Assembly: GCA_002269645.1 (NCBI GenBank)
Contig: NIVC01003917.1
Span: 1-40,869 of the forward strand
Source of the DNA: Macrostomum lignano
Lineage: Eukaryota
DNA: 40,869 nucleotides
Direction of reading: 5' to 3'
The notes under the pieces are model-generated. The model saw only the letters and a program-made list of their open reading frames with translations, was not told the DNA's origin and made no database searches. Shown one piece after another: positions 1 through 18,110 of the stretch (the stretch's first letter is position 1; the number at the start of each line of letters is the position of its first letter). The position numbers were made by a program, and so were the translations under genes.

Positions 1-579
1 TCCAGGCTGGCCGGGTCGATGCCAGCGGCCGGCCGGTAGCCCTCGGCCAGCAGGCGGCAGTACTTGAGCAGGCCGCCACCGCGAATCTCCTCGGGATTCC
101 TGGTGCAGATCTCCCGACTGGCCAGGTGGCTAACAGCCTCGGCGAAGCTGCCCGACACCGACTCGGCCAGAACGCGCCGATGTTTCGTTTCGTCGACTCC
201 CTCTTCGCCGATAGATTCGAGCACAATCTGGAAGCTGTCAACGGTGAACTCGAACTGGCGTCGCATTCGGTCGACAAATTTCAGTTCGACCATGGCCACG
301 CAGTCGGCGTCTTCTCGACCGTCATCGGCCTGGTGAAACTGGTCGTCCTCGTCGCAACCACCCAGACTGATGAGGGACCAGCGGTCGGATTCGAGAACTC
401 GACCAGCTTGCGGATGTACGAATCCATGGACACCTGCTGCAGCTGCCGCTCGCCCTCAGGAAGGTAGGTGCGCAGGCTGTCCAACACGGCGGACTTGATT
501 TTGTCCAGGGTGGCCGGCGCGCTGAGGTCCACGCTGAACAGCAGGTCCACGTCATTGTAGCACTGGTCCGGCTGACCGC
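1..579 (-). CDS. TENT5: TENT5/FAM46-family non-canonical poly(A) polymerase, internal exon (partial; one apparent 1-nt loss near 394)
   Basis: Manual translation of the minus strand gives [12 protein letters not shown]...[16 protein letters not shown]...YIRKLV(fs)[10 protein letters not shown]...[22 protein letters not shown]...[14 protein letters not shown], the hallmark FAM46 motifs (Dx[26 protein letters not shown]). A pyrimidine-rich acceptor ctccccaccag lies at 580-590. Confidence 0.88.
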
Positions 580-620
580 CTGGTGGGGAGAGGGGGGAGA
601 GGGTCCGGCTGGAGTCTCAA

Positions 621-1693
621 TGGTGTGATAATCTCAAACTGACAGGTGTGATCATCTCAATCTGAATAGTGTGATAATCTCAATCTGAATAGTGTGATAA
701 TCTCAATCTGAATAGTGTGATAATCTCAATCTGACTGGTGTGATAATCTCAATCTGACTAGTGTGATAATCTCAATCTGACTGGTGTGATAATCTCAATC
801 TGACTAGTGTGATAATCTCAAACTGACAGGTGTGATAATCTCAATCTGACTAGTGTGATAATCTCAATCTGAATAGTGTGATAATCTCAATCTGAATAGT
901 GTGATAATCTCAAACTGACAGGTGTGATAATCTCAATCTGACTAGTGTGATAATCTCAATCTGACAGGTGTGATAATCTCAATCTGAATAGTGTGATAAT
1001 CTCAATCTGAATAGTGTGATAATCTCAATCTGACTAGTGTGATAATCTTAATCTGAATAGTGTGATAATCTCAATCTGACTGTGATAATCTCAATCTGAA
1101 TGGTGTGATAATCTCAATCTGAATAGTGTGATAATCTTAATCTGAATAGTGTGATAATCTCAATCTGACTGTGATAATCTCAATCTGAATGGTGTGATAA
1201 TCTCAATCTGAATAGTGTGATAATCTTAAACTGACAGGTGTGATCATCTCAATCTGAATAGTGTGATAATCTCAATCTGACTGGTGTGATAATCTCAATC
1301 TGACTAGTGTGATAATCTCAAACTGACAGGTGTGATAATCTCAATCTGACTAGTGTGATAATCTCAATCTGACAGGTGTGATAATCTCAATCTGAATAGT
1401 GTGATAATCTCAATCTGAATAGTGTGATAATCTCAATCTGACTAGTGTGATAATCTTAATCTGAATAGTGTGATAATCTCAATCTGACTGTGATAATCTC
1501 AATCTGAATGGTGTGATAATCTCAATCTGAATAGTGTGATAATCTTAAACTGACAGGTGTGATCATCTCAATCTGACTAGTGTGATAATCTCAATCTGAA
1601 TAGTGTGATAATCTCAATCTGACTGGTGTGATAATCTCAATCTGACTAGTGTGATAATCTCAATCTGACTAGCGTGATAATCTCAATCTGACA
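621..1693. repeat. Tandem minisatellite, ~23-bp unit (agtgtgataatctcaatctgaat/act), about 47 copies, in the TENT5 intron
   Basis: Head-to-tail units with only point variants and occasional 20-nt units. The array stops exactly at the Polinton left end. Confidence 0.97.
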
Positions 1694-1883
1694 AGTAGAA
1701 GGCATGAGGGGGCTTTTGGGACAAAATTTTTCACATCCTCCATAATCCCATTAAATCCATCCATATTATCCCTGACAGAATCAGAAAAAAGGGGGGTCGC
1801 ACTCGCTCACAAAACATCCTCCATAATCCCATTAAATCCATCCATATTATCCCTGACAGAATCAGAGCATAACAGGTGTCCTA
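1694..1883 (+). repeat. Left terminal inverted repeat of the Polinton (190 bp, with internal ~50-bp duplicated subunit)
   Basis: Reverse complement of 17189-17378 with about 5 differences. Confidence 0.93.
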
Positions 1884-2206
1884 CTGTTATGCTCTGAGGG
1901 TTTATGCTCTGAGCATAACAGCTCCAAATCCACCCATAACATTTCTAAAACAATCAGAAAAATAATCTGCATTCTTCTCCCCACATTCAATCCGCAACGT
2001 GCTACCACATCCCTAAGACTTTAAATCATCAGCGCAAGGTCCTTACCCATTGAAAAAATATAAATAATTTTATTATTCATTAGTAAGAATTATATATTTA
2101 TTAACAGTTGCACAGCTGATAGGATATGTATCAACTATTACAAGATTATCAAAAATGGTAGAAAAAACAGACACTATGTAGGATCTGAGTTAGAATTCTT
2201 CAACAA

Positions 2207-2630
2207 CATACAGAGCCAGCCTAGCGTTCCTTTGAGCCAGCAGCTAGATTCTCTAACGCCGTTAGAATTTTCTATGTGAAAATTTGGTGTGCCCAAGCTT
2301 ATCTTGCGGGAAACTTTTCACATAGAAAATTCTAACGGCGTTAGAAAATTTCTACCCCCCCTCTATTTAACCATACAGAGCCAGCCTAGCGTTCCTTTGA
2401 GCCAGCAGCTAGATTCTCTAACGCGTTAGAATTTTCTATGTGAAAATTTGGTGTGCCCAAGCTTATCTTGCGGGAAACTTTTCACATAGAAATTTCTAAC
2501 AGCGTTAGAATTTAAAACCCACCGACTGAGTTGCACACAGTACTGAGAAAATTGCTACCCTCCTCTACTTAACTAATCGGCTGTCTCCAGTTGTTGAATC
2601 TTCTCTTTGAAATTCTAACGCGTTAGAAAA
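2207..2630. repeat. 165-bp direct repeat (about 2 copies plus remnant) containing nested palindromes
   Basis: catacagagccagcc starts at 2207 and 2372. Arms 2252-2282 and 2315-2345 are perfect 31-bp inverted repeats. The motif TCTAACG(C)CGTTAGA occurs five times. Confidence 0.9.
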
Positions 2631-2655
2631 ATTCTAAATGAACTGAATTTAAAAA

Positions 2656-15739: not shown

Positions 15740-15758
15740 ATATTTTTTTTGGAAAAAA

Positions 15759-16621
15759 ATGGAAGCTATAGCCGAAAGACTAAACAACATTGTTTCACAC
15801 TCTAAGGAGAGCATTCCTATTACAATAACTGGGCGAATTAATGACTCAAACGGGATATTTATTCAAAAATTAGAGCAGGCGATTCGCCTGGATCCAGGTG
15901 CTAATTACCATGTCTATCTTAACGACTTCACTGGTTGGTCAAACGTTCCCAATGTGTCGGCAGCAAATAATAAGTTTTATTACAAATGGAAAGGTGCAGC
16001 AGCAGAACCTGTGGTATTCCCTGTGAGCACGCAAAGTGTGGATACCTACAATTACTTTCTAGAAAATGTCTTTACTAAAAGAGGCCATTTTGAGACACCT
16101 GATGCGAGTAAGCCAGATAAAAAATGTTCCCTGTCAAACTATCCTATGATCTCACTGTAATGAGAGTGGTCATGCAAGTTCACAAAGATGCGGAGGTTGA
16201 GTTTAAAGATGACACTTGGTATAGGGAATTGGGATTCGTGAAGAAAGTTTATAAGGCAGAATCCACAGCGCGGACTGTCACTCAAGCGACGGGGGCCGTT
16301 AGCATGGCCCGGGAAAGTGTACGCGGTTTGTTCTTAGCACCCAATATAGCAGACATTGTAAAGGGTTTGAATATTCTAATCAGAACTAATCTCAGTCTTG
16401 ATTGGGTATTTAAGGGAAAGCGAACTAATATTTTGTACAACATCTCCAACTCTGTAGCTGGAGGACAGATGGTGGTAGAGAAACCAAATCCAGTGAAAAG
16501 AGTTGTATTGAGTAATAAGGAGATTCACGAGATTGTGCTACAGTTTGAGACTGAAGATGGGATGGGTGTTGATTTCAACGGTGAAGAGTTTGTACTGACG
16601 TTGATCATTGAGAGAATGTAA
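15759..16621 (+). CDS. mCP: Minor capsid protein (penton, single jelly-roll; 1-nt loss near 16122)
   Basis: IRLDPGANYHVYLNDFTGWSNVPNVSAANNKFYY ... KRTNILYNISNSVAGGQMVVEKPNPV...IHEIVLQFETEDGMGVDFNGEEFVLTLII match Polinton penton N- and C-terminal patterns. Confidence 0.87.
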
Positions 16622-16625
16622 GAAA

Positions 16626-16865
16626 TCACAATTGTCTAATGATTTCTACAAAGTTATAGTAGCTGTCGTAATCTTTTACATAGGTTACTCCATACTTATG
16701 AAACCAGTGTCTTTGGAGAGCTAGATTAATATTAGGGACATTGATATCAACGTCGGGCCAATATTTTCTCATGTACTCGCTGCATTCAAGTTTGCATCGG
16801 TACTTACTCTTGTAATTAGGCTCGTGCGCTTTGTAATAAGAACCTGGAGAGACAACTGGAAACAT
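16626..16865 (-). CDS. Small Tyr-rich orphan ORF (79 aa)
   Basis: Has the same T-rich/aaaaATG start context as the other viral genes and its stop abuts the mCP stop. No recognised family. Confidence 0.5.
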   Translation of the reverse strand: MFPVVSPGSYYKAHEPNYKSKYRCKLECSEYMRKYWPDVDINVPNINLALQRHWFHKYGVTYVKDYDSYYNFVEIIRQL

Positions 16866-17188
16866 TTTTAGAGAAAATTTAATTTTTTTTCAAAGGGTAA
16901 GGACCCTGGGTTAGGGGATTCAAAGTCTTTGGGATGCGTTGCGAATTGCGAATTGAATGTGTGGAGAAGAATACAGATTGTTTTCTGATTGTTTCGAAGA
17001 TGCTATGGGTGGATGTCAGTGGATTATGTAGGACACCTGCTATGCTCTGATTCTGTCGTGGAGGAAGGAGGATAGGTTAGGAGGATTATGTTCGAAGTTT
17101 TGTAAGCGAGTGCGACACCTGTTATGCTCTGATTCAGGGATAATATGGATGGATTTAATGGGATTATGTTCGAAGTTTTCGGAGCAAC

Positions 17189-17378
17189 TAGGACACCTGT
17201 TATGCTCTGATTCTGTCAGGGATAATATGGATGGATTTAATAGGATTATGGAGGACGTTTTGTGAGCGAGTGCGACCCCCTTTTTTTCTGATTCTGTCGG
17301 GGATAATATGGATGGATTTAATGGGATTATGGAGGATGTGAAAAATTTTGTCCCAGAAGCCCCCTCATGCCTTCTACT
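17189..17378 (-). repeat. Right terminal inverted repeat of the Polinton
   Basis: Reverse complement of 1694-1883. Two further degenerate subunits extend inward to about 17030. Confidence 0.93.
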
Positions 17379-18110
17379 TCCACCACAGGCAGACTTTTGC
17401 TGTAAATGCTCTCCGGAATGGCGAACGTGGCCGGCATGCCGATGACATGGAGCACGATACCCGTCAACACCAGTGTGATGTAGAGCGTCGGCTTGTTGTG
17501 GTCCACAAACATGAGGGCCATGCAGTTCCAAAAGTAGGCACCAATGAGCAGACCAATACTGCACATGAGCAAGAAGCGGTCCTCGAATCTTCCCAACAAG
17601 AAGCGCAGGACAACAAATACAAGAATCACAAGGACACCAGCGCCCAAGTACACCAGACTTGTGTACAGTTCGTCCCAAGCGAAATAGCGGTTGGCAAGCG
17701 GAGGCAATACAGCCTCCAGTGCCATTAGATTAAAGTAGCTAGAGAATGTAATAAAGATCATAGCGAAAGTGTCCAATTTGAAGTACATGCGCAGGTTTTC
17801 GATGCTACACAACTGCTGAACTCGATCGGACACTCCCTGGTCTGTAGTCGGAGGCGGTGGCGGCGGTACTGGCGACGCCTGTTCGGTGGCCACAGACGGC
17901 CTCTGAGTGGGCTGGACCGTTGTGTCTGGCGATTCACGGCCACACCGCGGCGAAATCGGCTCTGGCTCACATTCGGGTAGGCGGCAATGATGGCGATTGT
18001 GTGAATCGCCCACAACAGGGCCATTACTAGTCCCGGGGAGTTGTAAACATCGATGACGAACTGCCGGACTTTGTACCGAATCGGGTGCATCAGTAGCGTC
18101 AGAGCTGGAC
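17379..18110 (-). CDS. MFSD8/CLN7-like MFS transporter, exon 2; truncated at its 3' end by the Polinton (apparent 1-nt loss near 17970)
   Basis: Acceptor cag|GTCCAGCT joins exon 1 in frame (GLIAG-PALTLLMH...YNSPGLVMALLW). Later TM helices read FITFSSYFNLMALEAVLPPL...GMPATFAIPESIYSKSLP, then the sequence runs directly into the TIR. Confidence 0.85.

Follow-up and report, generated by a model that had tools for sequence, protein, structure and literature searches.

Where an assembled genome presents a large element whose genes are cut by one frame break after another and contain no in-frame stop codon, it must be asked whether the element is decaying or the assembly is wrong. The window analysed here is the whole 40,869-nt stretch of Macrostomum lignano contig NIVC01003917.1 (assembly GCA_002269645.1), and our answer is that its frame breaks very probably represent a local, deletion-biased error of the assembly consensus. 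Judged by its sequence, the element is a Polinton/Maverick in a Macrostomum-like flatworm. It spans 1694-17378 (15.7 kb), its outermost letters are AG...CT, and its terminal inverted repeats extend over 191 nt at 97% identity, with 5 mismatches between the left and right arms in the outer 190 nt. The hallmarks found are a protein-primed DNA polymerase B (pPolB), an rve integrase, a packaging ATPase, a maturation protease, a double jelly-roll major capsid protein (MCP) and the inverted repeats. All 16 catalytic motifs sought were present, in agreement with the first-pass annotation, which had described the catalytic residues as retained. The element comprises:

1694..2080, plus strand, left terminal inverted repeat, starting AG
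2656..3336, minus strand, accessory ORF, no Pfam family
3797..4242, minus strand, gene with parvovirus-type PLA2 domain (PF08398 in two pieces; step ~4100)
4275..5311, plus strand, rve integrase (PF00665, E 1.1e-8, above cut-off; step ~4845)
5328..5777, plus strand, Protein X (mu)-like core gene (PF05829, E 5e-7), open frame, separate from PLA2
5902..9758, plus strand, pPolB (steps ~6733, ~7198, ~7958, ~8364)
9802..10202, plus strand, adenain-type cysteine protease (PF00770 above cut-off; Atlas 0.96; step ~9903)
10206..10919, minus strand, ORF with hydrophobic stretch (net -2 near 10740)
11009..11829, minus strand, coiled-coil-like ORF, a first-pass label (step ~11360)
11843..12643, minus strand, A32/FtsK-type packaging ATPase (PF04665 above cut-off, Walker A and B), open
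12876..13210, minus strand, small ORF, putative 'core', a first-pass label (step ~13200, from frame arithmetic only)
13220..14424, minus strand, Gln/Pro-rich ORF in several frame pieces (X3 record 23, X7 record 29)
14455..15739, plus strand, MCP (tiled by P0241; steps ~14629, ~15094)
15759..16621, plus strand, probable minor capsid protein, labelled from position, no Pfam match (step ~16122)
16880..17378, minus strand, right terminal inverted repeat, finishing CT, without target-site duplication

Homologues cross the breaks by changing frame. At least 120 relatives of pPolB are listed, at 40-46% identity, tiling five frame segments, and the 120 that were mapped pass through frames 1, 3, 2, 1 and 3 in order; the motifs Exo I-III and Pol A-C were found, the PF03175 matches (E 2.7e-4 and 7e-4) lie under the gathering score, and the N-terminal piece has no Pfam match. 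The MCP is 71-86% identical to P0241 (428 aa, carrying PF21738), which tiles it gap-free in three frames, each joint 1 nt short; loci related to P0241 numbered 0 of 17 viral-contig and 0 of 233 metagenome-contig candidates. Pfam positions 1-20 and 21-78 of the PLA2 domain fall in two different frames, the D-D-E motifs of the integrase are present, and the Atlas match of the 'core' ORF is weak and unnamed.

The first-pass annotation had listed 14 steps of net -1, and frame arithmetic on stop-to-stop pieces indeed gives -1 modulo 3 at 14 of 14. Its reading of each as a single-base loss has the right frame sign but misses that ~7958 is 4 nt short (three records in three runs), and its -2/+1 break at ~10740 satisfies the modulo-3 arithmetic but appears in the contigs as two single losses ~12 nt apart, net -2 and not +1. 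The region 13224-14424, which it had called unresolved, resolves, between the ORF pieces chosen, into six steps, five of -1 and one of -2; within it, one contig carries 5 extra letters and lacks 27 over 13810-14413, which fits the -5 expected in that interval. Its break in the neighbouring TENT5 exon is real, its position being corrected from ~394 to ~401. The lack of in-frame stops was borne out, 15 gene pieces (2836 codons) being stop-free when their bounds are chosen around the breaks.

It had also been proposed that accurate reads carrying the extra base would mark the breaks as artefacts. A comparison of this kind was run with short-read contigs from the runs of four studies (X3, X7, X11 and X12), over a stretch that begins beyond the TENT5 break and the element's left junction, and the longer form was found at 12 of the 14 comparable breaks, across the four studies. 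The two breaks without a direct contig row are ~9903, where the support is indirect, a spanning contig record being net +25, and ~13200, which has neither row nor record among those listed. The best 12 of 104 indel rows are all of the 'put in' type, the contig being longer than the window, and 4 of these 12 sit in non-coding DNA; among the 32 contig pieces listed, 16 are gapped, and of these 14 exceed the window in length, 1 falls short of it and 1 matches it. In X11, depth with the extra base equals total depth (leaving none without it) at ~4845, ~6733, ~8364, ~14629 and ~16122. Indel rows occur in 3 of 3 covering runs at ~4845 and in 4 of 4 runs at ~11360, and contigs are longer at ~16122 in 3 of 4. 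Eight tabled breaks by four runs make 32 cells, with a row in 25, no cover in 1 and cover without a row in 6; a loose end or the record length explains 3 of these 6, leaving X12 at ~6733, X7 at ~15094 and X3 at ~16122 unexplained. At two sites of micro-repeats (9712-9762, and 27 nt in the Gln-rich ORF) it is the window that is longer than some of the contigs. Contigs have loose ends in the PLA2 gene (X11 and X12) and in the ORF at 10206..10919 (X3 and X7), and none among those listed spans the whole element. Programmed ribosomal frameshifting or RNA editing might restore the frames, and a single sign across steps would suit it, but the longer form is also in X3, a run labelled 'DNA?' (the DNA being a guess), and losses affect non-coding DNA and host exons too; we regard it as barely conceivable.

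The contigs are drawn from all copies of the family, and possibly from other strains as well; they drop rare variants and report presence only, with no locus anchoring. Contig depth in X11 is ~250-730 in most core bins versus 15.6 at the MFS exon, which suggests that the element family is multicopy, although depth does not equal copy number and was not used as such. In a multicopy family the contigs cannot be assigned to the window locus, and a genuinely short allele at a single locus could escape the comparison. The accessory ORF at 2656..3336 has contig depth below that of the core in 4 of 4 runs, about a tenth of it in two. The first-pass conclusion that the element is probably intact in vivo is supported for the family and not for the window locus.

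The same circumstances would allow the window copy to be truly pseudogenised by deletion-biased slippage, with the contigs deriving from other, intact copies: the family is multicopy by the depth contrast in X11 (again, not a copy number), contigs omit rare alleles, three of the run-by-break cells have no explanation, and the losses prefer runs of identical bases. Run-length context was nevertheless rejected as a discriminator, as natural slippage yields the same bias (of the 14 single-base losses, 11 lie in runs of identical bases and shorten them, versus 47% by chance, P 0.017). Nor does the sign alone prove error, the 12/12 sign test (P 5e-4) weakening to P 0.03 if 75% of natural indels are taken to be deletions. 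The indel:substitution ratio in decaying sequence is ~0.1-0.4; with this input decay would predict 12-50 substitutions, versus the 2-3 seen alongside 4 breaks across ~3.5 kb of pPolB in the contig pieces nearest to the window (P<=3e-4 for at most 2 substitutions with 5 events). Stop-creating changes make up 3.4% of substitutions, so that 100-200 substitutions should leave 3-7 stops where 0 are seen; this absence is telling only if at least 100 substitutions are expected, the probability of no stop being 0.36 at 30. Pseudogenisation would require ~20 deletions accompanied by next to no substitutions and by zero stop codons, and the defect would have to recur in two host exons unrelated to each other, of which one has two intact database proteins; we consider it improbable. 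The host features in the window are:

3..580, minus strand, TENT5 (FAM46) coding exon (PF07984 in both pieces; step ~401)
620..1692, no strand, tandem array of 23-nt units within the TENT5 intron
17379..18110, minus strand, MFS transporter exon 2, truncated by the element's right end (step ~17970)
19902..20530, minus strand, MFS exon 1, clean, in a single frame against P0251 residues 2-199
24726..29299, plus strand, SERBP1-like gene, three exons (PF04774), clean, open frames
35669..38330, minus strand, four tau-repeat exons of 90 nt each (PF00418, AG/GT ends), clean, open frames

As the first-pass annotation had noted, host exons beside the element share the defect (TENT5 at ~401, MFS exon 2 at ~17970), and MFS exon 1, SERBP1 and the tau-like gene are clean. 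These control exons (three of SERBP1, MFS exon 1 and four of tau repeats; 2996 nt) contain 0 steps versus 3.3-4.6 expected (probability of none 0.04-0.01). Two TENT5 proteins, P0121 and P0246, cross the step at ~401 gap-free; the window exon is a mosaic that equals P0246 up to the break and P0121 beyond, and the switch interval (residues 142-188) includes the break. MFS relatives change frame near 17970, and an MFS contig (X7 record 31, 2061 nt) is 1 nt longer than the window over 17379-18113. This contig stops at the place that a splice of exon 1 to exon 2 predicts, and it departs from the window at the element end with 716 nt remaining; its 9 substitutions in 735 nt mark it as another allele or homeologue. 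At the breaks, contigs or proteins of independent origin are longer than the window, and the defect is local. Consensus error as the cause, which the first-pass annotation had put forward, is supported by the contigs of four studies, the intact TENT5 proteins and the longer MFS contig.

A mixed case, in which errors account for most steps and real lesions for one or a few, so that the copy is not fully intact, is less likely than pure error and keeps a modest share of our belief. The 4-nt loss at ~7958 is unlike the others in kind, ~9903 and ~13200 have no direct read rows, and the MFS contig is another allele; once the element had disrupted it, an MFS allele could truly decay. The contigs also contain deleted derivatives of the family, with joints from 8018 to 17026, 6873 to 7148 and 16081 to 16446. 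Yet the longer form near 7958 is in three runs, and every step has the sign of the confirmed ones.

The junctions raise a separate matter. The exact flank length shared at the two element ends, where a target-site duplication was sought, is 0. To the left, the TENT5 first exon (residues 1-103) is absent, residues 1-104 having no match at E<=1 in the window; to the right, the final ~85-95 MFS codons are missing from the window. The 23-nt array does not resume right of the element, all 44 unit matches in the window lying inside 620-1669. With no target-site duplication and truncated halves of two host genes, both of them points that the first-pass annotation had missed, this is probably not one insertion, and the assembled copy is probably a composite of two insertion sites. 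Ectopic recombination between two Polinton copies could instead have joined the TENT5 intron to the MFS exon by deletion or translocation, an account of the join and not of the frameshifts. A multicopy repeat of 15.7 kb is a standard cause of false assembly joins, collapse is already evident in the TENT5 mosaic, and no contig record listed spans a junction; real flanks seem unlikely, even though the lacking duplication, the two truncated genes, the arms differing at 5/190 nt and the unstable karyotype of M. lignano described in PMC10468722 would all agree with them.

Under the favoured explanation, consensus error, near-identical sequences of a multicopy Polinton family and of duplicated host genes would have been collapsed in assembly, in an organism that PMC10468722 calls a hidden polyploid. 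Noisy long reads may then have left deletion-biased errors in the consensus, and short reads that map to many places would have let polishing fail in and beside the repeat, where errors persist; PMC8812927 reports that repeat errors often outlast short-read polishing. The control exons (SERBP1, tau-like gene, MFS exon 1) would stay clean, and the collapse probably fused two insertion sites, the TENT5 intron and the MFS exon, via the element. We infer the long-read technology, the failed polishing and the chimeric join alike, and also infer that every gene is open in any single genomic copy.

The frameshift pattern itself would then be an ordinary assembly artefact, and poor polishing of repeats can skew assembly-based counts of 'intact' and 'fossil' Polintons; vertebrate Polintons are given as 96% degraded in PMC8097293. 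The underlying biology would be a Polinton family of recent origin in a flatworm that serves as a model of regeneration. The family looks young and is possibly transcribed, the 'RNA?' run labels being guesses. It might, though we hold this less likely than not, be a young, multicopy, transcribed family of a laboratory flatworm whose capsid and replication gene sets are complete, still inserting, with a polymorphic insertion disrupting the MFS exon, and hidden from annotation by assembly errors. If it is young and still inserting, M. lignano would be a tractable animal for asking whether Polintons move or form particles. Among the papers searched, three name both M. lignano and a Polinton-type element, the element once each, and none of their titles points to such a family (repeat databases lay outside this search), and Macrostomum or flatworm terms were absent from one supplement of PMC8502044 (~4.0 million characters, possibly incomplete).

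Compared with known systems, the element resembles Polinton/Mavericks in its pPolB, rve integrase, A32 ATPase, adenain protease, double jelly-roll capsid, inverted repeats and AG...CT ends, and its 15.7 kb falls inside the Maverick range of 12.7-24.6 kb (PMC8097293). It differs from them in that the window assembly has no 6-bp target-site duplication, so that the locus, lacking a perfect one, is not an 'intact' single Maverick insertion as PMC8097293 defines it, and from vertebrate Polintons in that its ends carry no full (AGT)2 or (AG)3 motif. With alpha adintoviruses, as PMC8502044 describes them, it shares an animal host, a parvovirus-type PLA2, a protein X-like gene and weak PF03175 similarity in pPolB; there PLA2X is fused, whereas here PLA2 (3797-4242, minus strand) and protein X (5328-5777, plus strand) are separate. 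Alpha adintoviruses are also marked by a PF03175-class PolB with an OTU domain at its N-terminus; the N-terminal pPolB piece of the window gave no Pfam match. The breaks, finally, are like the residual indels of long-read assemblies in repeats, as set out in PMC8812927, being small, repeat-concentrated losses enriched in runs of identical bases and corrected by short-read contigs, but unlike them in that two flanking host exons are hit and one loss is of 4 nt.

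At 1694-17378 lies a 15.7-kb Polinton/Maverick element whose inverted repeats measure 191 nt (97%), with the following predicted genes:

Within 1694-17378: PLA2, rve integrase, protein X, protease and A32 ATPase genes, with Pfam support
Within the element: pPolB, from homologue search
Within the element: double jelly-roll capsid gene, from homologue and Pfam comparison

By this gene content the element is a Polinton, which an extract of PMC5499653 defines by pPolB plus integrase; the minor-capsid, 'core' and 'coiled coil' ORFs carry putative names from the first-pass annotation. 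That annotation had listed 14 frameshifts, each a net loss of 1 nt, and frame arithmetic indeed gave -1 mod 3 at 14 of 14, although near 7958 contig record lengths from three runs put the loss at 4 nt. The additional break near 10740 was, as described, -2/+1 by frame. The interval 13224-14424, previously called unresolved, is broken but resolves into six steps between ORF pieces of our choosing, five of -1 and one of -2; a piece of a Gln/Pro-rich ORF there, at 13614-13850 (-), weakly resembles KilA-N (PF04383, E 7e-4, under the cut-off). Against 120 polymerase relatives pPolB ran through frames 1>3>2>1>3, and a 428-aa capsid relative (P0241) tiled the capsid gene without a gap as 56+158+214 residues in three frames, each joint being 1 nt short. 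SERBP1, MFS exon 1 and the tau-like gene, already reported as clean, served as controls: their exons, 2996 nt in all, contained no step where 3.3-4.6 were expected (P0 0.04-0.01), so the defect is local.

A comparison with contigs assembled from reads favoured the longer form. Twenty of 24 listed runs (7 studies) contained 82-88% of the words sampled from 6000-10000, and contigs of four runs from four studies were aligned to 2600-18400. Of 104 indel rows, the 12 with the best support all showed the window to be short: eight coincide with listed breaks (~4845, 6733, 7198, 8364, 11360, 14629, 15094 and 16122), and the others, at ~4270, ~5900, ~10200 and ~17275, lie in non-coding DNA, which fits an error blind to coding. 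The longer form also appeared in loose contig ends near 4100 (once) and near 10740 (twice), and by contig record length 1 nt is absent from the MFS exon. Read-derived support thus covers 12 of the 14 breaks within 2600-18400, the remaining two being ~9903, where the support is indirect, and ~13200. Among the 32 contig pieces listed (of 32 + 2634), 14 of 16 gapped ones were longer than the window, one was equal and one shorter; the last had 5 letters more and 27 fewer, the 5 agreeing with the -5 predicted for that Gln/Pro-rich stretch. On the other side, three of 32 run-by-break cells were covered yet had neither an indel row nor an explanation, and at two micro-repeat sites the window was longer than some contigs. 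Several contigs lack 35-49 nt of the short G/A-rich micro-repeat at the pPolB end (9712-9762), so copies differ in the C-terminus of their polymerase.

Real decay should leave substitutions and stops. Natural indel:substitution ratios are 0.1-0.4, from which we computed 12-50 substitutions in pPolB (about 3.5 kb, four breaks), whereas the closest contig pieces carry 2-3; with about 20 real frameshifts one would expect 100-200 substitutions and, at a 3.4% chance of a stop for each, 3-7 stops, whereas the fifteen gene pieces (2836 codons) contain none, as first claimed. All 16 catalytic motifs sought are likewise retained. Losses fell within runs of identical bases at 11 of 14 sites (P 0.017), a bias that does not separate error from decay. 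We consider it highly probable that the breaks are an assembly artefact.

The neighbouring host exons share the defect, as had been suggested. The closest named relatives of the TENT5 exon (3-580) are from Macrostomum lignano, which would make the host this species or a near relative. Two database proteins, P0121 and P0246, both cross the exon's break at ~401 without a gap. The exon is identical to P0246 over 60 residues before the break and to P0121 over 133 after it, and the interval of the switch spans the break; it is a mosaic of two copies, such as a collapsed consensus, or possibly a recombinant allele, would give. A further public M. lignano TENT5 model (P0122) has a short stretch in another reading frame against 1-577, which suggests indel errors elsewhere in a further assembly. 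In MFS, whose coding exon contains the right end of the element (17378/17379), run X7 yielded a 2061-nt contig that follows 17379-18113 but for one extra base and 9 substitutions, continues 716 nt past the element's end, and ends exactly at the splice point predicted from exon 1 (itself outside 2600-18400, the stretch compared with contigs). It most likely represents a spliced transcript of a different allele or homeologue that lacks the interruption, and the MFS insertion may therefore be polymorphic or confined to one homeologue.

Elsewhere in the window, the MFS intron contains a palindromic MITE-like element of about 700 nt (18442-19138), to which sequences near 22758 and 32473 are related. 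An interspersed repeat of 127-164 nt, presumably SINE-like, has three copies at 21957, 26648 and 32056. Pfam gave nothing relevant for a degenerate fragment at 30900-31420, which we take to resemble a LINE reverse transcriptase at its end.

The element family is multicopy; depth in run X11, about 15-50x that of the MFS exon in most element bins, is a hint of this and not a copy number. Contig joints at 8018>17026, 6873>7148, 10982>11123 and 16081>16446 point to internally deleted members, one without 9 kb, and the left accessory part (2600-3650, with a 226-aa orphan ORF), at about a tenth of core depth in runs X3 and X11, is probably carried by a minority of family members. Since the family is multicopy, the contigs show that open forms exist within it, not that the window locus is open. 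Consensus error as first proposed is favoured and intact family members are likely, whereas this locus itself may or may not be intact. No target-site duplication was present at the element ends in the window, to the right there was no resumption of the 23-nt array or of TENT5 exon 1, to the left there was no MFS C-terminus (no match at E<=1; positive controls matched), and the outer arms differ at 5/190 nt. On these grounds the assembled element is probably a composite of two insertions; a real rearrangement between element copies could also have made the join, but seems unlikely.

In sum, the window falls short of independent sequences at the breaks, the defect is a local one, and the two flanks do not belong together. 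A noisy long-read consensus would have left the base losses, and polishing would fail where reads map to several places, as part of PMC8812927 indicates. The host is a hidden polyploid according to a section of PMC10468722; in such a genome copies may have collapsed and been falsely joined through the repeat.

In a search of the literature, the few papers found with host and element names together mentioned the element term once each. The window element differs from an 'intact insertion', as described in an extract of PMC8097293, in lacking a target-site duplication. It differs too from alpha adintoviruses, in which, according to portions of PMC8502044, PLA2 and protein X are typically fused, whereas here they are separate ORFs.
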